Position numbers and translations under genes: made by a program. A stretch of 64,000 nucleotides of DNA from a virus. Under the pieces are notes generated by a model. That model did no database searches. It was given only the letters and a program-made list of their open reading frames with translations, and was not told the DNA's origin. The stretch spans positions 11,371 through 75,370 of the IMG/VR virus record IMGVR_UViG_3300042516_004698, one strand, 5' to 3'. Positions 981-55,464 of this stretch are shown here, one piece after another (position 1 is the first letter of the stretch; each line of letters opens with the position of its first letter).

Positions 981-998
981 TAAGACACGGAGGTCTTA
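981..998 (+). promoter_or_regulatory. CsrA/Rsm-type binding hairpin over the RBS
   Basis: TAAGAC-ACGGAG-GTCTTA: perfect 6-bp stem with an ANGGAN hexaloop, ending 3 nt before ATG 1002. Confidence 0.7.
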
Positions 999-1001
999 AC
1001 T

Positions 1002-1562
1002 ATGGCAGCTCCCGATCTTCCCTTCGAACACGCCGTTGATATCAAAAAGGGCTGGTTCGACATGGCGTCGCTCGACTACTCGGCCAAGCTGGGTACAGTC
1101 GGCTACACCCTCCCGCGCGGCCGCGTGGTGCACCTTGAGCACGTAAACGGCGCAGAAGTTTTTCTGCCCGGCGTACGCGCTACTGACGTCGCTATCTTCC
1201 TGCTTAATGGCGCTAACGATGCCGACGTTTCAAACGACGGCACCACAGCTTCGGGCAAGTTTGTGCAGCAGGCGATCTCGCCGAGCGGCAAGCTGTCCGG
1301 CGTAGTGGCCACAGGCGGTTACGAGATCGACTCGACAGAGTTCGTCTCAAACCGGTCTTACGTTGCCGGCGATCTTCTCACGGCCCCCCTCGGTGCTGCC
1401 TCCGGCAACGCCGCGACCGGTGGCGTGCTGACCAACGCCAGCGTCACTCAGTTTGTCACACCGGTGGTCGGTGTGGTGTCCAGCGGTAAACACACCAACC
1501 ACAACGGCGTCAGCACGCTCTCCTTCTGGAGCGTGTGGCTTCCCGGCGCGGTACCCGGCTGA
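1002..1562 (+). CDS. Head decoration/capsid cement protein
   Basis: 186 aa, beta-rich Gly/Val/Thr composition, immediately upstream of the major capsid gene, biased codon use. Confidence 0.65.
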   Translation: MAAPDLPFEHAVDIKKGWFDMASLDYSAKLGTVGYTLPRGRVVHLEHVNGAEVFLPGVRATDVAIFLLNGANDADVSNDGTTASGKFVQQAISPSGKLSGVVATGGYEIDSTEFVSNRSYVAGDLLTAPLGAASGNAATGGVLTNASVTQFVTPVVGVVSSGKHTNHNGVSTLSFWSVWLPGAVPG

Positions 1563-1581
1563 AACTAACCCTTAACTATCA

Positions 1582-1597
1582 GGAACACGGAGGTTCC
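1582..1597 (+). promoter_or_regulatory. CsrA/Rsm-type binding hairpin over the major capsid RBS
   Basis: GGAAC-ACGGAG-GTTCC: 5-bp stem with an ANGGAN loop, ending 2 nt before ATG 1600. Confidence 0.7.
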
Positions 1598-1599
1598 AA

Positions 1600-2526
1600 A
1601 TGCCTACACAGTCAGAAATCCAACTGCTCAACGAAACACTGTTTGAGCAGCTCGACACTCCCGGCATGCAGAAGCAGGCCATCGACGCGGTTAACGACTT
1701 CACGCGCACCAAGATGCGTGAAGACGGGTTCTACCGGCGGATTATGCCGCCGCTGACAATCACCAACGACGAGCTCGACCGTCAGGTTGACACTGACAAG
1801 CCCGTCAAGATTGTCGATAAGGAACCCGATTCCCCGGCTGCCGTGTCGATCCCGTTTGCCACGCTGCCCGTTAACTTTTACATCCGTGGCCCGCGTTACC
1901 GCGTCATGTTTGACCGGATCGTGTCGCCCCGCGCTGTGAAGGACGTCGACGAACTGCGCACCTACGTCATGGACATCCGGCAGGTTCTGTCGGACAACAT
2001 GATCAAGGACATGCTCGCCGAAGAAGACGGAAAGTTCATGGCCGCGATCAACGCTGTGCTCCCGACTGCGGGCGCCCCGGCTGTTGGCTCGGGCGAAGTT
2101 CAATACGAGGAGATCTACGGTGGTATCACCCGCGAAACGCTGGTTGACGCCCTCAAGATCATGCCGCGTACGGCTTCGCACTTCGAGGTTGAGACTTGCC
2201 TCGTGAATAACCTCACGATCAAGGAGCTCCTCAAGTTCGGTCGCGACGAAATGGGTGGTGACTTCTCGCAAGACATCATCAAGAACGGCTGGGCGGAAAC
2301 CAACTTCCTGAATTGCCGCTGGATCGTGACGATCAAGACGGGCCTTGTCCCCACGGACAGCCTGTTCATGTTCGCCTCGCCCAAGTTCATCGGCAAGAAC
2401 TACGAGCTCGAGCCCACCACGATGTACATCCGTCGTGAAGCTTACATGCTCGAGTATTTTGCCTATGAGACGACAGGCGGCTCGTTCGGCCATACGAACG
2501 GTCTGGCCCGCGTCGATTTCAAGTGA
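1600..2526 (+). CDS. Major capsid protein (probable HK97 fold)
   Basis: 308 aa, strong C-ending codon bias typical of highly expressed genes, strong SD, position between the decoration and neck genes. Confidence 0.85.
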   Translation: MPTQSEIQLLNETLFEQLDTPGMQKQAIDAVNDFTRTKMREDGFYRRIMPPLTITNDELDRQVDTDKPVKIVDKEPDSPAAVSIPFATLPVNFYIRGPRYRVMFDRIVSPRAVKDVDELRTYVMDIRQVLSDNMIKDMLAEEDGKFMAAINAVLPTAGAPAVGSGEVQYEEIYGGITRETLVDALKIMPRTASHFEVETCLVNNLTIKELLKFGRDEMGGDFSQDIIKNGWAETNFLNCRWIVTIKTGLVPTDSLFMFASPKFIGKNYELEPTTMYIRREAYMLEYFAYETTGGSFGHTNGLARVDFK

Positions 2527-2557
2527 TAACAACGTTTAACTTTCAAGGAGCACAGAC

Positions 2558-2941
2558 ATGGATCAGGTAAAGCAGGCGGCCGAGCAGGGTTATGCCACAC
2601 TCGTGGCGGAACTTGCCGCGCCGTACTTTTTCGAGAAGCTTTCAGCGCACGGCATCTCGCCGCGCAATGAGGACGAGGCCGCAGAAATGTGGTCGGCCGC
2701 CCAGAAGCTTCATGTGCTCTATACAGCCGAGCAGCACAAGGCTGCCGCTGTACAGACCTCAAAGCTGGCTAGCGCCAACGAGCAGCTCGACGCTGTTCTT
2801 GTCGCCGCTGGCTTGGCCGGGTCTGAGAAGGTTGCGGCTTTTAATCAAGCGGCGGACGTCGCTGCGGCTCAGCCCAACATCGCCGACGCGGTGTTGAAGC
2901 TGCAAGCCGCTGCGGCGATCGCGCTGCAAAACGCTAGCTAA
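2558..2941 (+). CDS. Ala-rich helical head protein
   Basis: SD AAGGAG; 4 of 7 Lys are in K-x-A; in the head operon. Confidence 0.5.
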   Translation: MDQVKQAAEQGYATLVAELAAPYFFEKLSAHGISPRNEDEAAEMWSAAQKLHVLYTAEQHKAAAVQTSKLASANEQLDAVLVAAGLAGSEKVAAFNQAADVAAAQPNIADAVLKLQAAAAIALQNAS

Positions 2942-2959
2942 CTAATCTAGGAGCTTTTC

Positions 2960-3352
2960 ATGCCAAACACGACAACGGATCTCTATACGACTGTAAAGAA
3001 CGTTTCTGGGACAACCCAGACGTTCGGGTTTCTTGGTAAGCACGGCAAGCGACTCGCGAACAACGAAACCTATTCGGTTCGTGGGGATCTTGTCGGCGCT
3101 CTCGGCGCAGAACGCAGCACACGGCGTTTCGCTGCTCTTGAGCGGGCGCTTGTTAACGGCGCTCTGACTATTGTAAAGTCTCCGTCGGTGTACTTGCTGA
3201 GCGAAACTGGTGGCAACACCCGCGAGCTTGGTATGGCGTCGACCAATGAGCTGGGCACAACGGTTCCGTCGTTTGCCGGCGGCGGTGACTTCATCGAGGG
3301 CGACCTGAACACTAATGACGTAGCGAGCTCTAGCAGCTCTAGCGCCCCCTGA
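2960..3352 (+). CDS. Small virion protein with C-terminal Ser tract
   Basis: SD AGGAG; last gene before a terminator; ends SSSSSSAP. Confidence 0.5.
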   Translation: MPNTTTDLYTTVKNVSGTTQTFGFLGKHGKRLANNETYSVRGDLVGALGAERSTRRFAALERALVNGALTIVKSPSVYLLSETGGNTRELGMASTNELGTTVPSFAGGGDFIEGDLNTNDVASSSSSSAP

Positions 3353-3382
3353 GTTTAATTATCGCGATTCATCGTGATAAGA

Positions 3383-3417
3383 TAAGGGCTGGCCTCCGGG
3401 CCAGCCCTTAATCTTTT
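3383..3417 (+). terminator. Intrinsic terminator closing the capsid operon
   Basis: TAAGGGCTGGCC-TCCG-GGCCAGCCCTTA perfect 12-bp stem followed by ATCTTTT. Confidence 0.7.
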
Positions 3418-3434
3418 ACATAGCGAGCTAAAAC

Positions 3435-4442
3435 ATGGTTGTAATTGCTACGCCGAATGCTCCGCCGCCAGAACCTTGCTGCGATACGGATACCGGAACG
3501 CCGCCGACGCCAGCCGCTGTGCCGTTTGCCGGCCAGAGCGTGATCAGCGCGCCAATATCTGCCGTCAGCGGTCAGCCTATTTTGTCTCGTATGCGGGCTG
3601 TGTCGCTCACACAGGGCCAGACAACGACAATAGAGTGGCAGTTGCACGACAAAGACGGCGCCCCAATTAATTTAACGTCATTGGGTTTTACGAATAATTC
3701 GACGTCGTCCGGGCCGTTTCAAATCGTAATGCGGATAAAAGAACAGGTAGCGCTCGGTATTGGCAACTACGGTCCGCTGCAGGTACCCGCCACTGTAAAA
3801 ACAGCGGCTACCGGTATTGTGACAGTGGCGATGACCGCGAATCTGACGCAACTGCCGGGAGTGTATTACGGCGAAATGGCGCTGATAGACACATCAAATC
3901 CGAACGTGTCGTCGAAAATGATTTTTTCGAACACGTTTTCAGTGATTATTTCACGGAGTACGTTCGGTAACTCTACGCCGGGCGGTCCGCCGTCTATGGC
4001 AGAAATCCGATTGCATTTACGAGATAGCGCGCCCGGCGAGAGCTTTTTGCTCGACCACCTGATGTTTGACGACGCGGAAATCGCGCTGGCTATTACCCGG
4101 CCTATTCAATACTGGAACGAGATCCCCCCGCCGATCGCTACTTTTACAACGCAAGACTTCCCGTACAGGTATCACTGGCTTGAAGGTATTTGCGCCAATC
4201 TGTTCTTTATGGTTGCTGAGCAGTTCCGTAGAAACCAGTTGAGCTACTCGGCTGCAGGTATCGCGCTCGATGACCAGAACAAAGAGCCCAATTATGAGCG
4301 TGCCGGCCAAATGCGGTGGCAGGCGTACAGAGAGTGGGTGCGCGCGCAAAAAGCCTCGCTCAACCTTGAGGGCGGCTACGGCGAAGTCGGCTCGCTCTAC
4401 CAATATGGCGTTTACTCGTCCGGTATTCGGTCTCGGTACTAG
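3435..4442 (+). CDS. Head-tail adaptor/neck protein with N-terminal BppU-like Ig domain
   Basis: QGQTTTIEWQLHDKDGAPINLT...PGVYYGEM resembles BppU N-terminal domains; the C-terminal half (IRLHLRD...FDDAEI) is adaptor-like; synteny. Confidence 0.6.
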   Translation: MVVIATPNAPPPEPCCDTDTGTPPTPAAVPFAGQSVISAPISAVSGQPILSRMRAVSLTQGQTTTIEWQLHDKDGAPINLTSLGFTNNSTSSGPFQIVMRIKEQVALGIGNYGPLQVPATVKTAATGIVTVAMTANLTQLPGVYYGEMALIDTSNPNVSSKMIFSNTFSVIISRSTFGNSTPGGPPSMAEIRLHLRDSAPGESFLLDHLMFDDAEIALAITRPIQYWNEIPPPIATFTTQDFPYRYHWLEGICANLFFMVAEQFRRNQLSYSAAGIALDDQNKEPNYERAGQMRWQAYREWVRAQKASLNLEGGYGEVGSLYQYGVYSSGIRSRY

Positions 4443-4444
4443 GC

Positions 4445-4481
4445 GCTAAAAATCCGTTAAAAATGCGGCATATTAAATAGT
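4445..4481 (+). promoter_or_regulatory. Conserved phage promoter-like motif, copy 1
   Basis: GCTAAAAATCCGTTAAAAATGCGGCATATTAAATAGT; near-identical copy at 47498-47534. Confidence 0.6.
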
Positions 4482-4520
4482 GGTGTTTGCTACTATTTGC
4501 CCGATTTAACGGAGGTATCG

Positions 4521-4955
4521 GTGATCAAAACAAGCGCTGTCGACATGGCGCTCGCGCAGATTGTGAAAATGCGTGAGCACGATCGGCTGAATTCGGAAAG
4601 TTTTAATTTATACGAGGAGCTACTCGCGTTACATCACGCCCGCGGTGGCTCTGGAGACGAGCTGCCCGATAAGGCATACTCAGAATTGGCCCGGATGATT
4701 GCGGCTATATTGCTGGATATGGGCAACAGCGCTAATACAAAGTTTGCCGCGCTGCTCACGTTTATCCGTGATTTGCCCGACGATACCGCGGCGAGTGCGG
4801 AAACGGTAGACAAGCTGAAAGACACGGCGCTCGAGGCGGCTGATAGTTACTTGTTTACGTTAAGCATGTGCAAGGCGTCTCTCGCTGACGCGGATTACAA
4901 GTATCTTGCCGAGGTCGCTATTGACGCTAACAAGGACGCGTTGCAGGCCTCGTAA
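4521..4955 (+). CDS. Hypothetical helical protein in a moron-like cassette
   Basis: GTG start at 4521 after GGAGG; has its own upstream motif and downstream terminator. Confidence 0.6.
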   Translation: MIKTSAVDMALAQIVKMREHDRLNSESFNLYEELLALHHARGGSGDELPDKAYSELARMIAAILLDMGNSANTKFAALLTFIRDLPDDTAASAETVDKLKDTALEAADSYLFTLSMCKASLADADYKYLAEVAIDANKDALQAS

Positions 4956-4974
4956 CAATTTCACTGGTTAATTT

Positions 4975-5008
4975 GGGGCGCCCGTAAGCGCGTGCGCCCC
5001 TTTTTTTT
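4975..5008 (+). terminator. Intrinsic terminator
   Basis: GGGGCGC...GCGCCCC stem followed by T8. Confidence 0.85.
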
Positions 5009-5047
5009 AGCTATCAGCGCAGCCATAATGAATGGGCGAGAATAACT

Positions 5048-6274: not shown

Positions 6275-6426
6275 TGCAGCCCGATAAATTGCGGCTTAAC
6301 GCCCAAATTGAGATGCGCGCTAAGCCACTAAAGACGCTACCGCAAATATCAATTACGCCCGAATTACCGAAAACAGATTCGCTACGTAGGTACCTTAAAG
6401 ATGTCGCACGAAAATCAGAGCAATGA
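6271..6426 (+). CDS. Small hypothetical protein (51 aa)
   Basis: ATGA overlap with the upstream stop; MMQPDKLRLNAQ...; fills the gap. Below the ORF-track cutoff. Confidence 0.4.
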   Translation: MMQPDKLRLNAQIEMRAKPLKTLPQISITPELPKTDSLRRYLKDVARKSEQ

Positions 6427-7093
6427 CTGCCCGGTAACCCCAGAACCGGAAAACCGTGTTCAGAAGGTGAGCTCGCTGTGTTCGTACGGCACCCGCCCGC
6501 ACGTCATGACCGGTTTACTGCGCCAACTGCTTATTCAGCACTTTACGGATCCCAATAACGTCGAAGATGAACTGTTACGGCAGAAATTTTTAGAGGTTGG
6601 AGGGTGGAAGCAGAACGAAAACGGACTGAATGACGGCGGTATTTTAATCGAAAGTATCACGCGCTGGCTGCCGAGCGACGAAGACAAGCGCCCGGCTGTT
6701 CTTATTAAACGTAACGACTGGTCATGGAACCGAATAGGTATCGGCGACGCGGCTGGTAGTGACTACACGTCCGGCTCCAGCAGTTACCTTGGTTTGTGGC
6801 AGGGAAGCCATACGTTATACTGTTTATCGTTAACAGGTCTCGAAACTGAGCTGTTGGCAATCGAAGTCGTCAGATTTTTGCAGCATTTTGGCCCGTGGAT
6901 TCGAGATCAAATGGACCTGAAAAGGTTCATGATCACACAAGTGGGCGGAATAAGTGAAATTAAAGAGGTGGTGCAGGGTTATGCCGTCCCTGTTACCGTG
7001 ACATACGTTGCCGAGGAGTCTTGGACGCTCCAGCCGTATGCGCCGCGTTTGAAGCGGATTGTCCTAAAGGCGTCAGAATTATTTACTTGCTGA
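6401..7093 (+). CDS. Tail terminator/completion protein
   Basis: Directly upstream of the sheath; KRPAVLIKR and YAVPVTVTY segments are typical of tail-completion folds. Confidence 0.6.
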   Translation: MSHENQSNDCPVTPEPENRVQKVSSLCSYGTRPHVMTGLLRQLLIQHFTDPNNVEDELLRQKFLEVGGWKQNENGLNDGGILIESITRWLPSDEDKRPAVLIKRNDWSWNRIGIGDAAGSDYTSGSSSYLGLWQGSHTLYCLSLTGLETELLAIEVVRFLQHFGPWIRDQMDLKRFMITQVGGISEIKEVVQGYAVPVTVTYVAEESWTLQPYAPRLKRIVLKASELFTC

Positions 7094-7200
7094 CTACGGA
7101 TTTAAAATCAAATACCGGGTGTTTTATTTGCAGTTACCGTTTTTTATACTGTGAATAGCCACCAACCGATCAACGCTTTACGGCATGGAGAGTTTTAACT

Positions 7201-10167: not shown

Positions 10168-10187
10168 ATTTAAAACGGAGTTAACAC

Positions 10188-15197: not shown

Positions 15198-15198
15198 C

Positions 15199-22183: not shown

Positions 22184-22978
22184 ATGGCAGCACAACAAAA
22201 GCAAATTACGTCAATCCTCGGCGATACGCCAGCGCCGTTTTCGCAGCAGCACCACACCGGGGTGGAGAATGATTTTGCTAGCACACACCAGATGTGGCAA
22301 AAAAATCAAACACCCGCTATGAACACAAAGATGCTCGCGGCTATACAACCTACTATCGATACGGCTGTATCTAGCTACGTCGGTCAAAATCCGTCGGCGG
22401 CGCTCAAAACACGAGCAAAACTGATGGCGCTGAAAGCCATGCAAAACTTTGATCCTGCGCGTGGCAATGTACGTACGCACTTACTTTCGCAGATGCAGAG
22501 TTTGCGCAGATTATCAGCACAAGAGCAAAACATTATCGGTGTACCTGAGCAGGTCGGCCTAGACTACCAACACTTGGCCGAAGCTGAACGCGAATTGCAG
22601 GACAGCCTAAGCCGCGATCCGTCAGACGATGAAATAGCAAACGCCACAGGTCTGTCAGTACGCCGTATCAATAAAATACGCGCGTTTCATAAGCCGATTG
22701 CCGAGGGATCCACGATTATTGAGAACGAGGATGACTATTCAGACGGCGGAGTAGCGAGTAAAGTGCCGGGCCAAACAAATGCGCAAGATGCGTGGATGGA
22801 TTTTGTGTACGGTGACTTAACGCCAACAAATAAGCTAATTATGGACATGTCGCTTGGCCGCAATGGGCGCCGCAAGGCAAGCGTACAAGAGATAGCGCAA
22901 CGGCTCAATGTCACGCCGGGCGCAGTCAGTCAGCGGGCGGCAAAAATTCAAGCAATGCTAAACAAAAACGCACTTTAG
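22184..22978 (+). CDS. Sigma-70-family RNA polymerase sigma factor
   Basis: Region 2 LKAMQNFDPARG; region 3 LSRDPSDDEIANATGLS; region 4 HTH SVQEIAQRLNVTPGAVSQR. Confidence 0.85.
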   Translation: MAAQQKQITSILGDTPAPFSQQHHTGVENDFASTHQMWQKNQTPAMNTKMLAAIQPTIDTAVSSYVGQNPSAALKTRAKLMALKAMQNFDPARGNVRTHLLSQMQSLRRLSAQEQNIIGVPEQVGLDYQHLAEAERELQDSLSRDPSDDEIANATGLSVRRINKIRAFHKPIAEGSTIIENEDDYSDGGVASKVPGQTNAQDAWMDFVYGDLTPTNKLIMDMSLGRNGRRKASVQEIAQRLNVTPGAVSQRAAKIQAMLNKNAL

Positions 22979-27921: not shown

Positions 27922-27935
27922 GGACAAGGATGTCC
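27922..27935 (+). promoter_or_regulatory. CsrA/Rsm-type binding hairpin overlapping the start codon
   Basis: GGAC-AAGGAT-GTCC contains ACAAGGATGT; ATG 27930 lies in the loop and 3' stem. Confidence 0.7.
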
Positions 27936-29834
27936 AACAACTGGCTTTTTAATATCAGGCACATCGCGGCAGGCGAGCCCGTACAGGCAGAAGTTGTCGG
28001 TCGGCCGGATAAATCGCTTGAACAGCGTACAGATTATCTGAAAGACCGGCTCGACGCGGCGGCGCTTGGGCGTGCGTTATTTGACGTAGACGCCACAATA
28101 GCGCCAGACGTGCTGGAGGGGCAGCCCGTGTTCTGGAACTACCAGACGCAGCGCTATGAGCGCGCTCTGGCGGCTGTAGAAAACGACGACGTTACGCAGA
28201 CGCTCGTAGTACAGGCCTCGTCTGATTGTCTGGGGCTGCTGTACAGCAAGAAGTCGCCTACGCTCGGGGATATTGTGCTGCGCGGCATTGTTAAGCTCCC
28301 GGGGCTTACTAACGCTATAACCGGGCCAATCACGGCCGGCCGCTATTACCTGTCGTCAGAGGCCCCGGGCAAACTGGTGAAGCAGCGCCCGCCTGCTACG
28401 GTCTCTGTGTGCTACGTGCAAGGCGCCAAGGACAGCTGCGCCGCTGATCCGTGGGTTGTGGTAATGCCACAAGTGCGCGACTTCCTTGAGGATCACATTC
28501 ATTATCGTTTTGAACTGGTCACACGGGCTGCCGGCGTGCTCTCAACTGCGAACGGCAAAGTGAGCATCACCCAGCCAGACGCCACACTTCAGGGCTGGCT
28601 GCCGGCATCGCATGCGGTGTTTAACGGCAAAGCTCCGGCTGGCGCGGTATTCGGATACAACCTGTCAGCGCACCTGCAGCTGTCCCGTGTGTGGCCGCCG
28701 CAGCCTGTCAGCGCCGTAGCTATGCTTTGGGATAAAGGCCAGAACCTTGTAGGCGCGACTGAAATACCGCTTGGCCGAGAAGGCTTGGCCATATGCGACG
28801 CCAACGGTATCTGGTGGACGAGCGACTGCGTAGGCGACGTTCCGTGGGTTGCAGGCGTATCCAGCTCATCTTCATCTTCATCTTCATCTTCAAGCTCGAG
28901 CGCTAGTTTGAGCGCCGCGGCAGAGTGCCCGCGTGACGAGCGTATGCGCGTCATTGTCGTGTTTCTGCGCATGGTATTCGGTAATGATCGCAGCGTAGTC
29001 ACGAGCTTGCAGGCCGGTCCCGGTAGCCCGATCCGCGTAACTAATTGCGACGGGCTGGTTGCTAAAACTGGCGACCTCGAATTAAACCTCGATCTCAACT
29101 TAGCAATTAAACCGCCCGACCTTGATGGCGCGCGCGTACTCAAGCGAATTGAAGACGGGTATAAATTTCGGCAGGGGTGGGTAACCGAAGGCGTTGTGAG
29201 CGGCTCTGCGCCAATTGTTGTAACAAGCTACCCAAGCAATCCAGTGGCGGCGCGTGCGCTTACCGCCGCCGAAAAAACAGGGTTGGGTTTTCCCGCAGAA
29301 GCGGACATAACGGCGCAGCGCGGCTTAGTCAAAATCTCGTTTAATGACGCGCTCGTCGAACGCGAACTGTCGCCGCAAATCATACGGCTATCGGACGCCG
29401 TGGAGCGGCTCTACAAAGACGTGCCGTATATCGGGTTTCCATCCGGACAAGACTCGTTGGTGCGCGTCCGGTTTATTGTGCCAGCTGCCGGGCTTGGGTT
29501 GGGTCTGCAGGTTGTATTGCGCGCGCAGTTACTCGGTCTCAGCACTGGCGCCTTACCAGAACTCGAAGTTACATATCGCAGATTGCCAAGACCCGCTGGC
29601 GCGCCGATCTCGCTTGTAGCCGTAGACGTATCGCCGGCGTTGGCGTTTGCTTCAAATGTAGCCGTAACGGCAAACAACGTTGTGGAGATTGAAAGCGCGC
29701 CGTTTCCTGTTGCTGAGGGCGATACCGTACTTGTTACCATGCGGCGTCGTTTAGTCGGCGGCGGCTCAGACGGATATCTCGGCGAGGTCGGTTTGTTGCG
29801 TTTATCTGGAATAGTCACCAATGTTGGGCCGTAA
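27930..29834 (+). CDS. Tail fibre/appendage base protein with internal poly-Ser
   Basis: N-terminal LEQRTDYLKDRL fibre-anchor motif; GRYYLSSEAPGKL; Ser tract around 28859-28900. Confidence 0.65.
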   Translation: MSNNWLFNIRHIAAGEPVQAEVVGRPDKSLEQRTDYLKDRLDAAALGRALFDVDATIAPDVLEGQPVFWNYQTQRYERALAAVENDDVTQTLVVQASSDCLGLLYSKKSPTLGDIVLRGIVKLPGLTNAITGPITAGRYYLSSEAPGKLVKQRPPATVSVCYVQGAKDSCAADPWVVVMPQVRDFLEDHIHYRFELVTRAAGVLSTANGKVSITQPDATLQGWLPASHAVFNGKAPAGAVFGYNLSAHLQLSRVWPPQPVSAVAMLWDKGQNLVGATEIPLGREGLAICDANGIWWTSDCVGDVPWVAGVSSSSSSSSSSSSSSASLSAAAECPRDERMRVIVVFLRMVFGNDRSVVTSLQAGPGSPIRVTNCDGLVAKTGDLELNLDLNLAIKPPDLDGARVLKRIEDGYKFRQGWVTEGVVSGSAPIVVTSYPSNPVAARALTAAEKTGLGFPAEADITAQRGLVKISFNDALVERELSPQIIRLSDAVERLYKDVPYIGFPSGQDSLVRVRFIVPAAGLGLGLQVVLRAQLLGLSTGALPELEVTYRRLPRPAGAPISLVAVDVSPALAFASNVAVTANNVVEIESAPFPVAEGDTVLVTMRRRLVGGGSDGYLGEVGLLRLSGIVTNVGP

Positions 29835-47190: not shown

Positions 47191-47191
47191 T

Positions 47192-47799: not shown

Positions 47800-47819
47800 T
47801 TCACGCTAAGTGTCTAGGT

Positions 47820-47872
47820 TTGTACCGCGACATTTGCACTTCTTTTATGATTTGCAAATTGTCGCGGTACAA
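47820..47872. other. Long intergenic inverted repeat
   Basis: TTGTACCGCGACATTTGCA...TGCAAATTGTCGCGGTACAA, 19 bp with one bulge. Confidence 0.7.
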
Positions 47873-47920
47873 CAGACCCAGTCGTACCTATCAGGATTTT
47901 TCTTAGCTATTGGGAAGATT

Positions 47921-48394
47921 ATGGCCAAAAAGCACACGATTGAAAAACAGTCCCGACCAAGGCCGGCGTACGTCATGCCGGCGCCAAATGACGACATCGC
48001 TGCGTACGGCTGGGATCTCCGACAGATCCGGGAGCCAGACGCAAAAAGCGCTGACAAGAAAGACCCCGATAAGGGCAAGCCGATATTTAGCGCGCCACAG
48101 GAAACCCTGCGGACAATGGAACGCTACGGCTGCGACGCCCACTTTCTATGTCCTAAATACCTGCAGATTCTGCTCGATCACTCTGATGAGTTGCGCAAAG
48201 TAACCATGCAGGCGGCAGAGAATAAATACCGCGTCAGCGACATCGACGAGATCGAGGCGACGCTCAAGAAGATCTTTGAAGAGATTGTGCTACCAGATAT
48301 CGTCAGTAACTTTAACCGGATAGCGCGCCCAATCGCGCAGTTTTATGCTGCACGATTGGCGCACATCCGGAAGTTCGGCAGCGAGCACGGCTAG
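47921..48394 (+). CDS. Hypothetical protein
   Basis: Likely ATG at 47921; its stop overlaps the convergent gene's stop. Confidence 0.6.
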   Translation: MAKKHTIEKQSRPRPAYVMPAPNDDIAAYGWDLRQIREPDAKSADKKDPDKGKPIFSAPQETLRTMERYGCDAHFLCPKYLQILLDHSDELRKVTMQAAENKYRVSDIDEIEATLKKIFEEIVLPDIVSNFNRIARPIAQFYAARLAHIRKFGSEHG

Positions 48395-48666
48395 ATTGAG
48401 GCCAGCACTGTGAAGTCACGGCGGTAACCATCTACGGGACCGCGCTTACCAAGCATGAGATCGTCATCGGTCTTACCCTCGGCGTCTACCGGGTACGGCC
48501 CGCTAGCGTTCGATACGCCCGGACGATGCAGCCCGTGTTCAGCTGCTTTCTGAATTACAGAATTTGAAGTTGCAGCCGACAGCAATTCCTCGATACTCTT
48601 ACTGGCAACAACGAACTCAGCGCGACCGTTGGCAACCCGCGTTAAATCGTCAAGGATAGAAATCAT
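48391..48666 (-). CDS. Hypothetical protein on the minus strand
   Basis: RBS GGAGGTTTCC-ATG identical to that of gene 511; TTGCTG-17-TACCAT promoter-like element at 48732-48704. Confidence 0.65.
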   Translation of the reverse strand: MISILDDLTRVANGRAEFVVASKSIEELLSAATSNSVIQKAAEHGLHRPGVSNASGPYPVDAEGKTDDDLMLGKRGPVDGYRRDFTVLASI

Positions 48667-49186
48667 GGAAACCTCCAAGGAAGAAAAACCGGTTACTTGG
48701 CGTATGGTAACCGAGACCGTAAAACTCAGCAAGTTGCAGTTACGCAATATCGTTAAATTAGCTAATCAACAATTACCCAATCCGGACGACGAAATACAGC
48801 CAGAATTGCTGATGTGCGTATTAACCGCAGACATGCTTATGCGGTTGTCGTTTCTGTCTGCCGAGCAGCGCGAGCTTATTCTGAGCGAGTCAGCCTATGC
48901 TCGAAACGCGGGTATTTCTGAGTTCGCCCAGATAGTGTTTGCCGACGGGCAATACTGCACGTGGACCGAGAATACCGGATTTTTAAACCTCGAGACCGGG
49001 GAGACCTTAACCCAGATACCCGTCCCGCCTATGGAGACTATTTCGTATAATCTGACTGAGCTGTATAGGCGCGGAAGACATCAAATAACAAAGCGGTATC
49101 ATCATGGCAAACGACCCGATGCTCAAAGCGATGTGGAAGAGCCCGCAGACGTTCGCGAGCGTTCTGCTGACGGTGTTTCTGGATAG
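48665..49186 (+). CDS. Hypothetical protein
   Basis: ATG 48665 after AAGGA. Confidence 0.55.
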   Translation: METSKEEKPVTWRMVTETVKLSKLQLRNIVKLANQQLPNPDDEIQPELLMCVLTADMLMRLSFLSAEQRELILSESAYARNAGISEFAQIVFADGQYCTWTENTGFLNLETGETLTQIPVPPMETISYNLTELYRRGRHQITKRYHHGKRPDAQSDVEEPADVRERSADGVSG

Positions 49187-49781
49187 GTTCGGGGTCGAGG
49201 GGCTCCAGTGGGATCCCGCCACAATTACGCTGGAGGTCGAAGAGGAGTTTGACGTCGACCTGCCGCAGGCGTCGTTAGACAAGCTTCTCGTGGCTATTAA
49301 CATCGTCACATCGGACTCGTTCTACCGCAGCCTGCCCGATTTCGTAATGTTCTGCAACGTGCTCAGTGGTGACACCTACCGGCCAGACATGTTCGACCCG
49401 GCAGATAGCTCTGAAGTGGCGTGGGGGCTTACAGAGGGGCTGCTGCTCTCGCCGCCTGAAGACGATCAGGACGGCCCTTTCAGCGACGAGATCAGAGCCT
49501 ATATCGGAGCCGTGCTGGATCAGGAAGGCATTATCAACGCGCCGGACGTGCTTAAGATCGCCCTGCGTAAAGCCAACGTGTCCGATGCGGCAAATGAGTT
49601 CTCAGACGACCCGGACATGTTCAACGCCGTCTACGACGTTGAGGCCGGGAAAGCTGCCGAGGTGGACGATATCATTCGAGCGAAGGTACAAATGCTGCTG
49701 GGGCAATTGCAGGCGCTCCAGCTGCGAAACGGCGCTACTGGTGCCGTAGTTAAAACGCTTGCAGCGTCTCTTTCTAGATAG
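49104..49781 (+). CDS. Acidic helical hypothetical protein
   Basis: 225-aa ORF with biased codon use. Confidence 0.65.
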   Translation: MANDPMLKAMWKSPQTFASVLLTVFLDRFGVEGLQWDPATITLEVEEEFDVDLPQASLDKLLVAINIVTSDSFYRSLPDFVMFCNVLSGDTYRPDMFDPADSSEVAWGLTEGLLLSPPEDDQDGPFSDEIRAYIGAVLDQEGIINAPDVLKIALRKANVSDAANEFSDDPDMFNAVYDVEAGKAAEVDDIIRAKVQMLLGQLQALQLRNGATGAVVKTLAASLSR

Positions 49782-49789
49782 GAAACAAC

Positions 49790-50005
49790 GTGCTTGTTTT
49801 AGCGCGAAAACGTGATGAGGTCATAATGATCGGCGACAACATCAAGATCACAGTCGTCGAAATACTACCCCACGCCGTTAAAATCGGCATCGACGCTCCG
49901 GCCGAAACGACGATCGTACGTAAAGAGCTTATCGCCAAGATGAAATTCGATCATCGGGCGCAACGGCCTAAAATCGGCAAAGATAACAAAGCAAATAAAG
50001 CTTAG
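49790..50005 (+). CDS. csrA: Carbon storage regulator / translational repressor CsrA
   Basis: MLVLARKRDEVIMIGDNIKITVVEI...VKIGIDAP..TTIVRKEL matches the CsrA family, including the RNA-binding Arg equivalent to R44. Confidence 0.95.
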   Translation: MLVLARKRDEVIMIGDNIKITVVEILPHAVKIGIDAPAETTIVRKELIAKMKFDHRAQRPKIGKDNKANKA

Positions 50006-51204
50006 TCGTCTTCCTCAGCGGCATAGTCGAACAGGGCTTCCAGCGATAACAAGCCCTGTTCGGCTTCGGGGCCGGTAATTGGCGACCCGGCGGACTTCTC
50101 GACCATCAGGCGATCGAGCATAGCCGCCATCCCGCGGTCCAGCGTCGGCACAATAGCCGCCAGCTTATCTCGGTCGGTATAGACACCGCCGGCAGACACG
50201 GCGTCAGCAAAGTCGTCGCCCAGCACGTCGCGGAGGTCGTCAACGGCCAGCTTTTCCAGATCGGCAAGGTCGTACACGTTGCCAGTGGTCGTCTCCACGT
50301 GGCCCGACATAAAGTCGCGAGCTGCCTTTTCGGTAATCGCAAATAATACGTCTTCGGGGCGGTCCAGCCCGCCGTTCTCATAAAGGCGCTGGAGCTTGGT
50401 ATCCCGGTCGAACTGGTCAACGATGCCGGCCAGTTTCAGCCGGAACTCCTCCCGGGCGGACTCGAGCGGGCTATTTTCGACCAGATCGGCCAGTTTAGCC
50501 ATTTCGGCGCTCAGGGCCGCGTGGGAGCGCTTTACGAGCTGCGCACGGCCACGAATAAGCTCAGCGGCTACTTTGACGGCGCAAAGTCCACGACCGGCAG
50601 CGGCGTCCAGACAGCCCTCAGCGGCGCTTATATCGGCTCCGTAGGCCGTAGCCTTGTCGAGGATCTTGTTGGCGATCTTATACCGGTCGGCAAACACGAA
50701 CTCGTCGCGGTACTTGTGGAAATGCGCCGAGGCAAATTTAACTTCGGTCGCGTTCCGGAGCGGCCAATGGCGTTCTACCTCGCCGGAGTCAGCCCGCCAT
50801 ACAATTGCAAAATCCTCGTCGGGGAGGCTATTTAAAGACGTGGTATTTGCGGCAGCCACCTTCTCGGTCACTTCCGTTACGGCTGTCGCAATGCCAAAAT
50901 ACCGGGCGGCAGAGACAATCCGCTCCTCGATGGCCTCGGCGGTTTTGGTGTCGAACTCGGCCCGCTTCTCGGCAAACCAGAGGGCGGACATCCACGTGGC
51001 CGGGGCTGTGTGGCAAGGATAAAGCTTCTTGTGCGGCTCGGCGTATAAATGCCGCGCCATTTTCTCAGGATTCCCGTGCAGGCGCTCATGGTCGGCGCTT
51101 TTAACAAAATCAGGGGCAGGGTATAAAGAGAGCAGACGGTGAGTTTCGCGGCCACTGATATCGCGGGTGTGATCCAGAGTATTCATGACGTTATTTAGCT
51201 CCAT
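50002..51204 (-). CDS. Probable internal head protein (K-x-A rich)
   Basis: 14 of 21 Lys are in K-x-A; the true start may be ATG 51186, which follows GGAG. Confidence 0.6.
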   Translation of the reverse strand: MELNNVMNTLDHTRDISGRETHRLLSLYPAPDFVKSADHERLHGNPEKMARHLYAEPHKKLYPCHTAPATWMSALWFAEKRAEFDTKTAEAIEERIVSAARYFGIATAVTEVTEKVAAANTTSLNSLPDEDFAIVWRADSGEVERHWPLRNATEVKFASAHFHKYRDEFVFADRYKIANKILDKATAYGADISAAEGCLDAAAGRGLCAVKVAAELIRGRAQLVKRSHAALSAEMAKLADLVENSPLESAREEFRLKLAGIVDQFDRDTKLQRLYENGGLDRPEDVLFAITEKAARDFMSGHVETTTGNVYDLADLEKLAVDDLRDVLGDDFADAVSAGGVYTDRDKLAAIVPTLDRGMAAMLDRLMVEKSAGSPITGPEAEQGLLSLEALFDYAAEEDD

Positions 51205-53818
51205 TATCGGAAGACACAGTCACGTGAGTGCCCTAATGATTATGGGCATTGCGGACGAAAATACGTCTTTTCCCGCCGTGCTGTCTTGTCCGTTTTGTGG
51301 CAAATCGACGTTGTATTGTTACGACGACACAGCCCGAGAAGATATCTGGTTAGCCTGCGACACCTGCTCGGTTCATGGAAATATCATAACATTCGCAGCG
51401 CAGATCTGGAAGCTAAACCCGGTCCAAACGCTCGCCCGATTCGACGAAAAGGGGCTGTGCTCCCGCAAAAACGACGCTGACGAAGTTAGCCGGCTAGCCA
51501 AGACCATAGAACGTACGACGGCGGCCGAGAAGTTCTGGACGGCGGCCCGAAAACAGCTATGGGACCATGACGACGTAACCATAGCCTACAAATTGCGTGA
51601 ATTAGGCGTATCCAACGAGATTCCGTGTGAAGGACTTGTCGGAGTGGCGCACCCAAAACAGGTCGACGAATTATGCGGGTCGGTGGCGAGAGCGTTTCCA
51701 ACCAACTTCGCCAAGACGGCTGTTATCGTATTTCCGTATTACGATCTGCCGCAACGACACAGCGGCTTTTTATTACTACAGCCCGGCGAAGATTTAACAA
51801 CCCAGCGGGCATTTATTACGACAAGCCGGAGCGGGCGAGTTAAGACAGACGCAGGATACTATTTATTACAGACGGCTCTCCTGCCAGAAAATCCTGCGCT
51901 TAAGCATTCGTACTTTATTGTCGATGACCCGCTCTGGGCGCTCAAGGCGCAGACTACGCAACTGCGCCACGGCCATAGCCTGCTGCCCATCTGCGCCAGC
52001 TATGACGGCAAAGAAGCGTCTAGCTACAGCATAAACCTGCTGCTGTTCCCGCACACCCGCCGGTTCTTCTCAAGCCGCGCTGTCACGCCAGCTTTGATTT
52101 CTCAAGCTGCCGCGGCGAGAGGATACGTCTGCACGCCACCAGACCGGCGCTCGCCATTGCCTGACATGCCGGCAAAAACCGTAGGCCGCCTTGCGAATAT
52201 ATGCCGATACGCAAAAACATGGCAGGACTCGCTTGAGCAGGTGTTTAAGACAAACAACGGACTGGCCGCCCAAGCGTTTGCCGCCGAGCTCAATATCGAC
52301 CGAGATAAGCTGCAGCGCTTTCTACAAGACCGTACGCCGCTGTCTCATGACGCAATCCAGCGCGTGCTTGAAAAAGTCGTACCGCATCACGGCGTCGACA
52401 ACATCAAGTACCGCCCCAAGACCGTCATCGAGCGCGACAACAAGTGGTACACAACTACAGGCGAGCAACTCACAAACTGCACGCCAATCGTCACGAAGAT
52501 CATTCATACCGACACAGAAGACAAATACTACGAAGGCTATATACAGAAAGAAGACATCGCCTATCCGTTTTTTGAGCGCTCTACTGTAGTCGAACGTCTC
52601 GGCCTGTTGAATTACGCCACTCAGCACATGGCGACTCACGGCGAGCTGGCGCTGTTTATGCGGCAATGGAATTTGCGGTCGCTAGCCACTGCACTCACGC
52701 TCCACCCGCCGCAAATACTCTCGATCTCTAGCGCGCCCGGTTGGAATGAGCGGACAAAAGAGTTCCAGTTCCGTCGCTACTCGATTAAGACGGATGGGAC
52801 TGTCGTTCCAGCGCCGTGCCCGGATCTATGCGCAGCAAATCCGCTCGATATGCCACCGCCAGAACTGGCAGCGCCGCACGCAATTCACAGCTTACTGGCG
52901 CCGACGCACGAAAACGCTGGCCTGTGGGCGTTTACAGCCGCGACTTTGGCCAGTATGGTAGCGCCAGCAGTTGCCGCAAGTCCGCAGAGCTTTGTGCTCG
53001 AGAAAACCGTATTCGATACGTTCTCTGTATTTGCGACACAGTTTGGCTGCGATAGCGTTTTGATTGGCGCGCCGTACAGAAACAACTCGGTCGGCGTAAT
53101 GCGGGCAGTCCAGCTAGTACGATGGCCGACGCTGGTATCAGAAATTAATGACAACGATAGAGGGCTTAGCGCCAGTATTATCAAGTACGCACACAGCCCG
53201 ACGATGTTCAGCGTGCTGCCGCAAAGCATCGTCAGCGCGCTCAGCTTCGACTGGTACGGGATAACGCCGGCAGCGCTCCCAGACAAAACAACAGACGTCT
53301 CTTCAATGCAGTTTGTCATCCCAGCGTATATTCAGCACGTCTTGCGGGACAGGCTGCCGGTAAAGGTGGGCGTGCCTTTAGTGCTCGTTATTTTGCGCGA
53401 TTTGCACAAATGGCTGGAGCACACGTACGGCGCCAGTTTTAACCTAGCCGCCGCAGAACGAGTAATAATCACACCTGAACACGCGCATGTTGTATTAATG
53501 ACAGAGTTAAACAACGCCATTACAGCCGGCGATATCAGCGTTTTGCCGCGGCCCAGAACGTCCAAGCAGAATCCCAGCTACGTCATCCGCAATAGGCAGC
53601 ATTGGTGGCTCAATAGAAAAGCCATAAATAACTACCTAGAGCAAAAAAGCGGGATTGTTCCGAATTGGAATGCTCTGTTAAACTGTTTCGTTAAACAGGG
53701 TGTATTTGCCGGCGAAAGCACAATAAACAAATCAAACGGTTTACTGTTACGCCGCGACTGGTGCGATACGTTTAGAGAGCCCGGATCAGAAACGCAGGAC
53801 GTAAAAAATGTCGGCTAA
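51185..53818 (+). CDS. Degenerate primase-like protein (Zn finger plus DnaG-like core)
   Basis: CPFC...CDTC, GNIITFAAQIWKL, VIVFPYYD...GF; TOPRIM-like YFIVDDPLWAL; no Walker A visible. Confidence 0.5.
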   Translation: MTLFSSIIGRHSHVSALMIMGIADENTSFPAVLSCPFCGKSTLYCYDDTAREDIWLACDTCSVHGNIITFAAQIWKLNPVQTLARFDEKGLCSRKNDADEVSRLAKTIERTTAAEKFWTAARKQLWDHDDVTIAYKLRELGVSNEIPCEGLVGVAHPKQVDELCGSVARAFPTNFAKTAVIVFPYYDLPQRHSGFLLLQPGEDLTTQRAFITTSRSGRVKTDAGYYLLQTALLPENPALKHSYFIVDDPLWALKAQTTQLRHGHSLLPICASYDGKEASSYSINLLLFPHTRRFFSSRAVTPALISQAAAARGYVCTPPDRRSPLPDMPAKTVGRLANICRYAKTWQDSLEQVFKTNNGLAAQAFAAELNIDRDKLQRFLQDRTPLSHDAIQRVLEKVVPHHGVDNIKYRPKTVIERDNKWYTTTGEQLTNCTPIVTKIIHTDTEDKYYEGYIQKEDIAYPFFERSTVVERLGLLNYATQHMATHGELALFMRQWNLRSLATALTLHPPQILSISSAPGWNERTKEFQFRRYSIKTDGTVVPAPCPDLCAANPLDMPPPELAAPHAIHSLLAPTHENAGLWAFTAATLASMVAPAVAASPQSFVLEKTVFDTFSVFATQFGCDSVLIGAPYRNNSVGVMRAVQLVRWPTLVSEINDNDRGLSASIIKYAHSPTMFSVLPQSIVSALSFDWYGITPAALPDKTTDVSSMQFVIPAYIQHVLRDRLPVKVGVPLVLVILRDLHKWLEHTYGASFNLAAAERVIITPEHAHVVLMTELNNAITAGDISVLPRPRTSKQNPSYVIRNRQHWWLNRKAINNYLEQKSGIVPNWNALLNCFVKQGVFAGESTINKSNGLLLRRDWCDTFREPGSETQDVKNVG

Positions 53819-54167
53819 GGAGTCGGATATGTCGCGGGTATACGGTCACTACTGGGCTGGTTGGTGTGATCCTATTGTTGCCGCCAAGCGCGACGACAAC
53901 TTTGACGAGGATTTCATCGACGAAGAGTGGCGGTTTGTTGACGACGACGAAGAAGAGGATGACGAAGACAGCATCGATGACGACGAGGACTACATCAAAA
54001 CAAATGTAGACTGGTACATCGACGAAAACGATGATTCCGCGGACGACGCCGACGATGACCTAAACTGGGAATACGGCGAAGACGACGACGAAGAAGAAGA
54101 CGACGAAGACCCAGCTTATCTTGACGACGACGAGGCAGATTACGACGCTGACGGCGCAGACGATTGA
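53808..54167 (+). CDS. Extremely acidic small protein
   Basis: About half Asp/Glu with spaced aromatic residues. Confidence 0.65.
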   Translation: MSAKESDMSRVYGHYWAGWCDPIVAAKRDDNFDEDFIDEEWRFVDDDEEEDDEDSIDDDEDYIKTNVDWYIDENDDSADDADDDLNWEYGEDDDEEEDDEDPAYLDDDEADYDADGADD

Positions 54168-54173
54168 TCTTTT

Positions 54174-54246
54174 GCCGGTGTAGCTCAGTTGGTAGAGCGT
54201 CAGTTTTGTAAACTGAATGTCGCCGGATCGTTCCCGGCCACCGGCT
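54174..54246 (+). tRNA. trnT: tRNA-Thr(UGU), no encoded CCA
   Basis: Acceptor GCCGGTG/CACCGGC, D arm GCTC/GAGC, anticodon stem TCAGT/ACTGA with loop TTTGTAA, T stem GCCGG/CCGGC. Confidence 0.92.
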
Positions 54247-54264
54247 TTGTTAAAATCTAAGGTA

Positions 54265-54278
54265 CGTCACGGAGGACG
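54265..54278 (+). promoter_or_regulatory. CsrA/Rsm-type binding hairpin over the RBS
   Basis: CGTC-ACGGAG-GACG before ATG 54283. Confidence 0.6.
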
Positions 54279-54282
54279 CGCC

Positions 54283-54726
54283 ATGGATTTCCGGATTGCC
54301 GTCAAAGACATAAACAAGCTCGGCCTGATCGACGTCACGGCTATCTATACGCGCTTGTCGTGGCCGGACTCAGAAAGCGCCAGCTCGATACGCAAAGAGA
54401 TCGAAAAGCGTTACGTCACGCCAGAACCGGGCCCGCATCCAGAGATGACGATGGCGCTCGTCTGGTGCGATGACGTTCTCGTTGGCTGGGTCGGCACGCG
54501 CCCTTGGCCCGAGAAGTTCAAGGGCGAGACAATTACCGTCCAGACAGTCGAGTGTTTCGTAGATCAAGAATACCGCCGGCGAGGTTTTGCTAGCCTTGGT
54601 ATGCAGGCGTTGATTACCTCTGGCGCAATTTCCCGCGTACGGCCAGTTGCCGTATACGCGCCTGAAGCTGTGAACGTAGCCAAGCAATGCGGATGTCAAA
54701 CCGTGTTGCTGTGTGAAGCTACGTGA
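54283..54726 (+). CDS. GNAT-family acetyltransferase
   Basis: LVGWV and motif A FVDQEYRRRGFA. Confidence 0.8.
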   Translation: MDFRIAVKDINKLGLIDVTAIYTRLSWPDSESASSIRKEIEKRYVTPEPGPHPEMTMALVWCDDVLVGWVGTRPWPEKFKGETITVQTVECFVDQEYRRRGFASLGMQALITSGAISRVRPVAVYAPEAVNVAKQCGCQTVLLCEAT

Positions 54727-54750
54727 ACTGCGCAAACAGCTATCCGCACA

Positions 54751-54778
54751 TTGACGCCTAGCCAATCAGTGCTAGGCT
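54751..54778 (+). promoter_or_regulatory. Sigma70-like promoter overlapped by a palindrome
   Basis: TTGACG-16-TAGGCT with an extended TG; GCCTAGC-N8-GCTAGGC spans it. Confidence 0.5.
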
Positions 54779-54816
54779 GCTCGATCGGTGTGTGCCTCTA
54801 ACTGAAAAGAGAAACA

Positions 54817-55095
54817 ATGATCCCAGCTACAAATTGGGAACCTAGCCGCAAAGACATTGAATGGCAGGAGCACATGATGCGCCTGCTAATAAATAAAGCC
54901 GCGTGGGCCGTACCCGGCACACAAAGCATCTTCGAAATCGACAAAGACAGTAAAACATTTAAGCTTGTTGTCGGTAACCCGGAAGAAGAAACTAATCGGC
55001 GCATCGCCAAAGTATTTAGACGGCTCGGCTTCTCCGAGTTCGGGGCGAGTGACCCTGAAAATCCGTTAGATCGTTTCAATGGTTCCATCAACTAG
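54817..55095 (+). CDS. Hypothetical protein
   Basis: ORF downstream of the promoter. Confidence 0.6.
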   Translation: MIPATNWEPSRKDIEWQEHMMRLLINKAAWAVPGTQSIFEIDKDSKTFKLVVGNPEEETNRRIAKVFRRLGFSEFGASDPENPLDRFNGSIN

Positions 55096-55105
55096 GGAGA
55101 TATCC

Positions 55106-55435
55106 ATGACCAGCGACGCAACAGTGACCAGCCTTCTCAGCAACATCGCCAAGGCAACCGAGGCTTTGGCCGAAGCCGTGTCCAACGAGATGAGCCTCGA
55201 GGATGGGCGGGCGAAGATCAAGATGGAAGCCGTGCAGCGCATCATGGCAGCCGGCGACAACCCCATGACCAGTAAGCCGCATTCGTTCAGCAGCGCGGAA
55301 GCCGTAGCCAATACCGACAAGGTGTACAACGACTATCTCGCTACCGTACGCCAAGCAGCTGTGCAGCGAATCCTTGCCCGCGGCCGTTACGACTCTGCGC
55401 TGATCGAGGCGCAGCTTATCGCCGGTAAGCGGTAA
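55106..55435 (+). CDS. Helical hypothetical protein
   Basis: SD AGGGAG; strong codon bias. Confidence 0.65.
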   Translation: MTSDATVTSLLSNIAKATEALAEAVSNEMSLEDGRAKIKMEAVQRIMAAGDNPMTSKPHSFSSAEAVANTDKVYNDYLATVRQAAVQRILARGRYDSALIEAQLIAGKR

Positions 55436-55444
55436 GCAGCACAC

Positions 55445-55464
55445 GAGCAATCAAGGAGGAGCTC
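55445..55464 (+). promoter_or_regulatory. CsrA/Rsm-type binding hairpin over the RBS
   Basis: GAGC-AA-TC-AAGGAG-GA-GCTC immediately before ATG 55465. Confidence 0.5.

Follow-up and report, generated by a model that had tools for sequence, protein, structure and literature searches.

Does a phage that carries a gene for the RNA-binding regulator CsrA also carry the sites that CsrA reads, placed on its own virion genes? The question is raised by a 64,000-nucleotide stretch of viral DNA (the window, in whose coordinates all positions are given), corresponding to bases 11371–75370 of the single 75,370-bp virus record IMGVR_UViG_3300042516_004698. The window holds a csrA gene together with several translation starts at which the Shine–Dalgarno sequence (SD) or the start codon lies in the loop of a small hairpin, and the original prediction was that these hairpins form a set of CsrA-controlled sites on capsid, decoration, fibre and accessory genes. 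We find that the hairpins are RNA-level cis-elements under structural selection. How far they can be regarded as CsrA operators is weighed below.

All five hairpins named in the original prediction, at 981, 1582, 27922, 54265 and 55445, are present on the + strand, and each is the minimum-free-energy (MFE) fold of its local context. TAAGAC[ACGGAG]GTCTTA (981–998; stem 981–986/993–998, loop, in square brackets, 987–992) encloses the SD of a probable decoration gene with its ATG at 1002, and GGAAC[ACGGAG]GTTCC (1582–1597; stem 1582–1586/1593–1597, loop 1587–1592) that of the major capsid gene with its ATG at 1600. At the 634-residue fibre-like gene, GGAC[AAGGAT]GTCC (27922–27935) holds the start codon itself (ATG 27930–27932) in loop and stem, its 5′ arm overlapping a GGAGG SD. 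The SD of a GNAT acetyltransferase gene (ATG 54283) lies in CGTC[ACGGAG]GACG (54265–54278), and that of a gene for a 247-residue protein (ATG 55465) in the bulged hairpin GAGC-aa-TC[AAGGAG]GA-GCTC (55445–55464), the MFE structure of which has a low ensemble frequency (0.19); no orthologue of this last gene was found among the relatives fetched. A C-G pair closes the loop in all five, and the GGA in the loop forms the SD core, 8–13 nt ahead of the ATG, for the genes starting at 1002, 1600, 54283 and 55465. Folded as single sequences, the hairpins have modest energies, from −5 to −12 kcal/mol, that taken alone do not reach significance; most z-scores do not reach it either, and short hairpins cannot be judged by z-scores. 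The GNAT hairpin in its context has −12 kcal/mol and z = −2.96.

Both strands were scanned for strict hairpins, defined as an ANGGAN hexaloop closed by at least four Watson–Crick pairs. On the + strand of the window, which carries almost all of its genes, 6 of 180 ANGGAN hexaloops are strict and five of these six overlap translation starts (987, 1587, 27926, 54269 and 58673); on the − strand none of 102 is strict. The motif (A/T)CANGGANG(A/T) is found eight times on the + strand and once on the − strand, where ~0.3 per strand are expected, and six of the eight stand directly before a start codon. Across the window's own genome (G000), strict hairpins account for 5 of 29 ANGGAN motifs positioned as ribosome-binding sites (RBSs) against 1 of 249 (0.4%) elsewhere (Fisher p = 5e-5). 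The original prediction had looked to a count against SD-preserving shuffles, and such a count gives enrichment: with the 5′ flank alone shuffled, and SD, spacer and start codon kept, the mean is 0.25 hairpins and 0 of 1000–2000 shuffles reach the 5 observed.

The strict hairpin at 58668–58683 (+), AGCTT[ATGGAC]AAGCT, with the ATG of the open reading frame (ORF) 58673–59050 in its loop, is a doubtful member of the set; it is not kept at the orthologous starts of G004, G010, G014, G011 or G016 (these, with G007, G012 and G019, are relatives from IMG/VR). The additional, weaker GGA loops proposed at about 497, 4509, 47563 and 53792 did not stand up, having at most three base pairs or large loops and being not above chance. 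Two looser sites, 4502–4520 and 10170–10184, are left uncounted, alternative MFE folds either pairing the GGA or forming large loops. At the RBS of ORF 511–936 (497–510), CACGGAGG is kept in G004, G010 and G014, with AACGGAGG in the window; there are just 1–3 stem pairs, and the CANGGANG motif is therefore conserved there without a hairpin. Eight of about ten GGAGG SDs of the fragment read ACGGAGG rather than the canonical AAGGAGG.

Comparison with relatives shows that the loops stay fixed as the stems change. The capsid hairpin is kept in 28 non-identical relatives, its loop staying A-N-GGAG on stems that vary between GGAAC/GTTCC, AGAAC/GTTCT, AAGAC/GTCTT, GGAC/GTCC and TTTC/GAAA. In the alignment of the 28 sequences 95.7% of cells are paired, both sides change in a compensatory manner in four of the five pairs, the covariation score is reached by 0 of 500 shuffles, and pairing collapses once the 3′ partner is slid by one column or more. 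The decoration hairpin keeps its core AGAC/GTCT in relatives (AAAC/GTTT in L033), with C or T as the variable loop base. Orthologues of the fibre-like gene, coding for 632–656 residues, keep their hairpin in G004 and G010, in G007 (loop ACGGAT) and, with a different stem, in G016; the GNAT hairpin is kept in the G004 orthologue, where a C-G pair has become U-G and the stem is longer. When genes with hairpins were clustered across eight genomes, orthologous hairpins with different stems were found on the capsid (five genomes), fibre-like (five) and decoration (four) genes, on those for a ~944-residue and a ~479-residue protein (three genomes each), and on the portal and GNAT genes. The portal gene of the present genome, just upstream of the window, has GCCGC[ATGGAG]GTGGC with one G-U pair. 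As the orthologues fall on capsid, fibre-like, decoration and portal genes, the conserved core consists mostly of virion genes.

The position of GGA within the loop is also restricted. We pooled G000, G004, G010 and G014 and tabulated all hairpins near starts with at least 4 bp and loops of 3–10 nt holding GGA, by loop length and GGA offset, all offsets included. A single class stands above background at RBSs, the hexaloop in which GGA has offset 2 (37 against ~5 expected); two smaller peaks arise from these hairpins being counted again with an additional pair or one pair less. A generic arrangement, with GGA or the SD in any hairpin loop, was rejected, since MFE folds are unenriched against flank shuffles whereas the hexaloop class is enriched. 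The first loop base is A in 35 of the 37 hairpins; the closing pair is C-G in 24, A-T in nine, T-A in four and G-C in none; and the loops end in G (24), T (eight), C (four) or A (one). As 13 of the 37 have a last base other than G, the conserved core does not extend beyond GGA to GGAG. Among orthologues the second loop base (N) takes all four identities and the last (X) is G, T, C or A. Because the stems covary around a fixed loop, on the sense strand only and in the ANGGAN register only, the hairpins are not a by-product of the SD, as the original prediction had argued from the differing stems alone.

These are the features that distinguish the best sites of the CsrA/RsmE family. From structures and isothermal titration calorimetry of RsmE, Duss et al. 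(2014) found that the protein binds most tightly to an ANGGAX hexaloop sitting directly on a stem. N and X are looped out and may vary, the protein contacts the C-G closing pair, and affinity falls 10–1000-fold without N, with insertions between loop and stem, or without the stem (PMC4005645). Judged by sequence and predicted structure, the sites in the window correspond to this high-affinity class in all but the usual dual sites. Their loops hold the SD GGA, or the ATG at 27930, where binding would block the 30S subunit.

A candidate reader is encoded in the same window. The csrA gene (49790–50005, +) has a GTG start and codes for a 71-residue CsrA-family RNA-binding protein, which matches Pfam PF02599 at E = 1.5e-20 (73.4 bits against a cut-off of 27; profile positions 1–51 of 53) and PHROG 9500, "CsrA-like regulator". 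It aligns with E. coli CsrA residues 1–55 without a gap, which together with the Pfam match confirms that the gene is intact; CsrA and RsmE chains in the PDB, 2jpp among them, match it at E = 1e-8 to 1e-7. Alanine-scanning work on E. coli CsrA places its RNA-binding residues on two edge strands (L2, L4, R6, R7, V42, R44 and I47), and the window protein has L2, L4, R6, K7, I42, R44 and L47 at these positions. Among 23 distinct CsrA sequences of the clade, the overall identity of which is only about 45–55%, L2, R6, G33 and R44 do not vary, and L4, K7, E46 and I/V42 hardly do; on these alignments the RNA-binding residues are under purifying selection across the clade. Of 25 related records, 19 yielded the gene, among them 13 of the 14 with a completeness of at least 90%, which makes it a core gene of the clade.

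The gene order around csrA (window 49104–51204) is kept in the close clade, with a 225-residue protein without known family, csrA and an opposite-strand 400-residue protein. In G016–G018 a second csrA copy also lies ~1.2 kb from a homologue of the gene for the 225-residue protein. This upstream protein is a possible functional partner of CsrA, going by gene order. The csrA leader in the window has one AGGAA, without a hairpin.

The mechanism that we propose starts from the SD GGA (or the start codon of the fibre gene) in its A-N-G-G-A-N hexaloop on a short stem, usually C-G closed. A CsrA-family dimer would clamp the hexaloop and compete with the 30S subunit; and binding, most likely by the phage CsrA and possibly by host CsrA as well, would hold down or time the synthesis of capsid, decoration, portal and fibre proteins and of a few accessory gene products. 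As to purpose, we speculate that virion proteins may be held back until abundant late messenger RNAs (mRNAs) out-titrate CsrA or, alternatively, that the ratios among capsid, decoration, portal and fibre proteins may be set in this way. Binding, the direction of its effect (repression) and the biological purpose of the hairpins are things that we only infer. We put the chance that the hairpins act in cis as translational operators of the CsrA/Rsm type at about even, and consider it moderately probable that they are CsrA operators if binding by host CsrA alone is included; the data do not separate phage from host CsrA as the putative binder. It is a little short of an even chance that this freshwater jumbo-phage clade has a self-contained regulon, in which its own CsrA reads operators on its own virion genes, and in some members on csrA itself, and sets timing or stoichiometry independently of the host Csr system. 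If true, a virus would have made a bacterial global regulator into its own translational switch for assembling virions, and compact, portable operator–repressor pairs would be supplied. The capsid, decoration, portal and fibre mRNAs, with their covarying textbook CsrA-type sites, are concrete candidate targets for a phage CsrA.

To what extent do hairpins and csrA go together? The same RBS test was applied to each whole genome, counting strict hairpins among RBS-positioned ANGGAN motifs against 1000 flank shuffles. Five relatives with csrA are enriched, none of the 1000 shuffles reaching the count in any of them: G004 (11/134), G007 (11/106), G010 (14/103), G012 (15/134) and G014 (5/135). Two complete genomes in which csrA is absent are not, namely G019 (0/131), an IMG/VR record, and Salmonella phage Arash (2/114). 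A contrast between relatives with and without csrA is seen in these genomes; it fails in G016 (GC content 43%), which has two csrA copies and no significant enrichment (2/161), and is blurred by G011, in which no csrA was found (the record is 89% complete) and the result is borderline (3/120, reached by 18 of 1000 shuffles). The capsid and decoration leaders of G016 still form looser hairpins with the SD in the loop.

The results for G016 and G011 are among several that weigh against a CsrA operator function. Unrelated phages with csrA are unenriched (F116, 1/17; Vibrio phage 431E45.1, 1/48; Bcep22, 0/22), so that the presence of csrA alone does not predict the hairpins, and the pattern is not typical of phage csrA at large. 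One clade holds all the enriched genomes, and the csrA-less G019 and Arash are its most distant relatives (29–30% capsid identity); the link between csrA and hairpins is thus confounded by phylogeny and could reflect shared ancestry rather than function. At −5 to −6 kcal/mol the hairpins of the capsid and decoration genes are weak, and they coincide with strong SDs (GGAGG); that a phage should repress its most abundant virion proteins also runs against intuition. In RsmE the closing G of the RNA hairpin is contacted by Thr5 (PMC4005645), whereas position 5 is Ala in the window protein and Ser or Thr in its relatives. CsrA dimers usually bridge a pair of sites per leader, an arrangement that is typical but not obligatory (PMC4005645), and the leaders in the window have a single site, tandem pairs 10–63 nt apart being absent from G000. 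No means of lifting repression is apparent either. The multi-GGA sponge RNA for which the original prediction suggested a search was not found: an Rfam E-value scan of the window for RNAs such as CsrB/CsrC or RsmX/Y/Z gives tRNA only, and there are no 120-nt stretches with at least five ANGGA in G000 (37% complete), G004 or G010. The antagonist FliW (PF02623) is absent from G000, G004, G010, G014 and G016. With neither sponge RNA nor FliW found, a route to relieve repression is not evident, 63% of G000 being missing.

In relatives, dual sites do occur. In G004 a single gene is preceded by two hairpins, spaced 27 nt, that share an ACGGAT loop on unrelated stems, G010 has two tandem pairs of GGA hexaloops, one spaced 18 nt, and G007 has one pair; for G004 and G010 together this gives three tandem pairs against ~0.2 expected. 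Two csrA leaders carry similar elements. In G012 (L064) the csrA RBS lies inside a TCGA[AAGGAG]TCGA hairpin, and in G014 (L068) there are six GGA in 60 nt, including CACGGAGGA. As sequences, these two leaders suggest CsrA autoregulation.

Could the same hairpins have arisen, or be read, in another way? Chance, or a by-product of SD composition, has a vanishingly small probability: single-sequence folding z-scores are indeed mostly not significant, but the shuffles, the contrast between RBS and non-RBS motifs, the strand asymmetry and the covariation rule it out. A weightier alternative is a cis-element independent of CsrA, in which the local fold would present the SD, insulate it against long-range pairing in long polycistronic late mRNAs, or stabilise the mRNA, tuning initiation without any protein partner, while the phage CsrA would act on host mRNAs. 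That the loops coincide with strong SDs is in keeping with this, X being G in 24 of 37 and the 3′ arm beginning with the last G of GGAGG; the weak capsid and decoration hairpins could be melted by the ribosome; csrA can be present without the pattern (G016, F116, Vibrio, Bcep22) and is not clearly needed for it (G011); and the literature sees phage CsrA as a manipulator of the host, of untested function (PMC11879866, PMC7366521). However, accessibility of the SD alone predicts many loop sizes and registers, whereas only the ANGGAN hexaloop is enriched and a generic GGA in a loop is at background. This register buries part of the SD (the last G and T) in the stem, and its conserved core stops at GGA. 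A cis-element of this kind also gives no role to tandem hairpins that carry this loop further upstream, clear of the SD, and the csrA-less G019 and Arash lack the pattern despite similar SDs. We therefore hold it to be unlikely, though not negligibly so.

The remaining alternatives keep a trans-acting reader and change its identity. The sites might serve host CsrA only, either because the host represses the phage, the phage CsrA having no part in it, or because abundant late mRNAs titrate host CsrA late in infection. Recognition being largely by the protein backbone, specificity for ANGGA is common to the CsrA family (PMC4005645), and the sites do lie on the most abundant late mRNAs, those for capsid and decoration proteins. 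For phages of lake water, however, a host CsrA is not established; Arash, without a csrA of its own, infects Salmonella, which has CsrA, and shows no enrichment; and the hairpin or GGA-rich csrA leaders of G012 and G014 point to a phage-internal loop. Host-only sites appear improbable on this evidence. The loops might also be read by another phage or host factor, either an endoribonuclease or some other RNA-binding protein. T4 RegB, a sequence-specific endoribonuclease, cuts GGAG in SDs. Conservation that is specific to the loop and independent of the stem does imply a trans-acting reader, and most genes in these ~200-kb genomes have no known family; yet the invariant A-N-GGA core fits CsrA better than a GGAG-specific nuclease, and no candidate factor was found, while CsrA, a conserved reader of exactly this specificity, is encoded. 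We give a different reader as little credence as host-only sites. Our preference thus stays with operators of the CsrA type, at the strength given above.

Among known systems the closest likeness is to the RsmE sites of Pseudomonas, the hcnA RBS and the RsmZ stem-loops, which share with the phage hairpins a C-G-closed ANGGAX hexaloop directly on a short stem, variable N and X, and a GGA that is the SD (PMC4005645). The hcnA loop, ACGGAU, recurs exactly in G004, G010 and G007, and the L037 hairpin TTTC[ACGGAG]GAAA is nearly that of hcnA. Unlike hcnA, the phage sites are on virion-gene mRNAs rather than those of host secondary metabolism, and X is mostly G, giving a full GGAGG SD; a sponge of the RsmY/RsmZ type, part of the Pseudomonas system, was found neither in the window by Rfam scan nor by the ANGGA count in G000, G004 and G010. 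For E. coli CsrA, systematic evolution of ligands by exponential enrichment gave the consensus RUACARGGAUGU, and glgC is an example of an operator. The phage hairpins resemble such operators in that the loop GGA overlaps the SD within an AC...GU closing context, the capsid and decoration sites reading ACACGGAGGT; E. coli targets usually have at least two sites per leader, whereas leaders in the window have one and dual sites are seen in relatives only. In B. subtilis, CsrA and FliW control translation of flagellin (hag), an abundant self-assembling structural protein, through an SD hairpin. This control is a possible functional analogy for capsid and decoration translation, unlike which no assembly-coupled antagonist was identified here, FliW (PF02623) being absent from the five genomes named above.

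Phage csrA genes are widespread, occurring in ~1% of phages (Sobrero & Valverde 2020, PMC7366521), and the usual proposal for their products is manipulation of host mRNAs (PMC11879866, PMC7366521). Adler et al. (2025) knocked down csrA of phage PTXU04 and described the role of phage csrA in the phage life cycle as not previously tested (PMC11879866). In the literature searched on phage csrA, no phage-internal set of CsrA targets is described; new here are candidate operators on the mRNAs for a phage's own virion proteins, in phages that also encode the regulator. A phage-borne CsrA homologue is something that the window has in common with F116-like Pseudomonas phages, Vibrio phages and Bcep22, although the genomes of F116, Vibrio 431E45.1 and Bcep22 lack the enrichment of ANGGAN hexaloops at RBSs. 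In F116 the csrA-like gene (L129, 33363–33569) is within the head-gene module. In Bcep22 (locus L172, 31170–32554) the CsrA-like gene is also in the head-gene module, immediately before the major head gene, and the intergenic leader contains a candidate pentaloop, GCGC[AGGAT]GTGC.

How secure are the labels of the target genes? The major capsid protein (1600–2526, +, 308 residues) is identified by 30% identity over 96% of its length in tblastn to the annotated major capsid protein of Salmonella phage Arash, the nearest annotated capsid. The GNAT acetyltransferase (54283–54726, +, 147 residues) matches PF00583 (E = 7e-7) and PHROG 1249; its start is taken as 54283 and not 54217, because the latter falls inside a tRNA-Thr(UGU) gene (54174–54246) that lies directly upstream of the GNAT hairpin. 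The 186-residue protein encoded directly before the capsid gene (1002–1562, +) has no Pfam or PHROG match. Its AlphaFold model is all-beta (predicted local distance difference test score 78), and Foldseek matches it best, with probabilities of 0.9–1.0 and E values no better than 7e-3, to small accessory chains from reconstructed phage capsids (FCWL1, phiCD508, T1, BB1 and Pam3). On this predicted fold it is a probable capsid decoration or cement protein; the weak resemblance to capsid accessory chains is consistent with the label given in the original prediction. The fibre-like protein (27930–29834, +, 634 residues) has no match in Pfam or PHROG, and its label is putative. Most of the target and neighbouring genes searched gave no Pfam or PHROG match.

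Since many relatives of the capsid gene sit on contigs of 180–226 kb, some of them with terminal repeats, the window is, on sequence grounds, a fragment of an uncultured jumbo phage of ~200 kb; 63 related capsid loci were found in IMG/VR, many of them on contigs of that size. CheckV puts the completeness of the record at 37%. The sequence occurs in public runs from lake and freshwater metagenomes, and megablast of 20 kb against INPHARED gave no close cultured relative. Other features of the window include a sigma-70-like factor (22184–22978), the large terminase (56205–58145, −) and a MoxR-type AAA protein (60719–62308).

Several smaller observations concern the same region and motif. A 306-residue open frame lies antisense to the whole major capsid gene (1612–2532, −); it was passed over by a codon-model gene caller and for that reason is probably a shadow ORF. 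Between the stop codon of ORF 511–936 and the decoration SD hairpin there is an extra hairpin, GTGCG-TGG-CGCAC, at 961–975. Most relatives (L001–L057) have a hairpin ~20–30 nt upstream of the decoration SD hairpin, with quite different sequences, and in some its loop holds GGA, as in CACA[CGGATC]TGTG and GAAC[AGGAT]GTTC. This upstream hairpin could be a terminator, a stabiliser or, in lineages with a GGA loop, a second CsrA site. Within ORF 6401–7093 an internal hairpin, TGGC[AGGGAA]GCCA, is found at 6797–6810; it resembles TGGC[ACGGAA]GCCA in G004 (80517) and G010 (31448), from which only the variable N differs. The contig ends at window positions 63990–64000. At its other end, 11,370 nt before the window, the record (genome positions 1–20) opens within a further copy of the motif, AAC[ACGGAG]GTT, with GTGATG after it, which places the contig break at or near an RBS.

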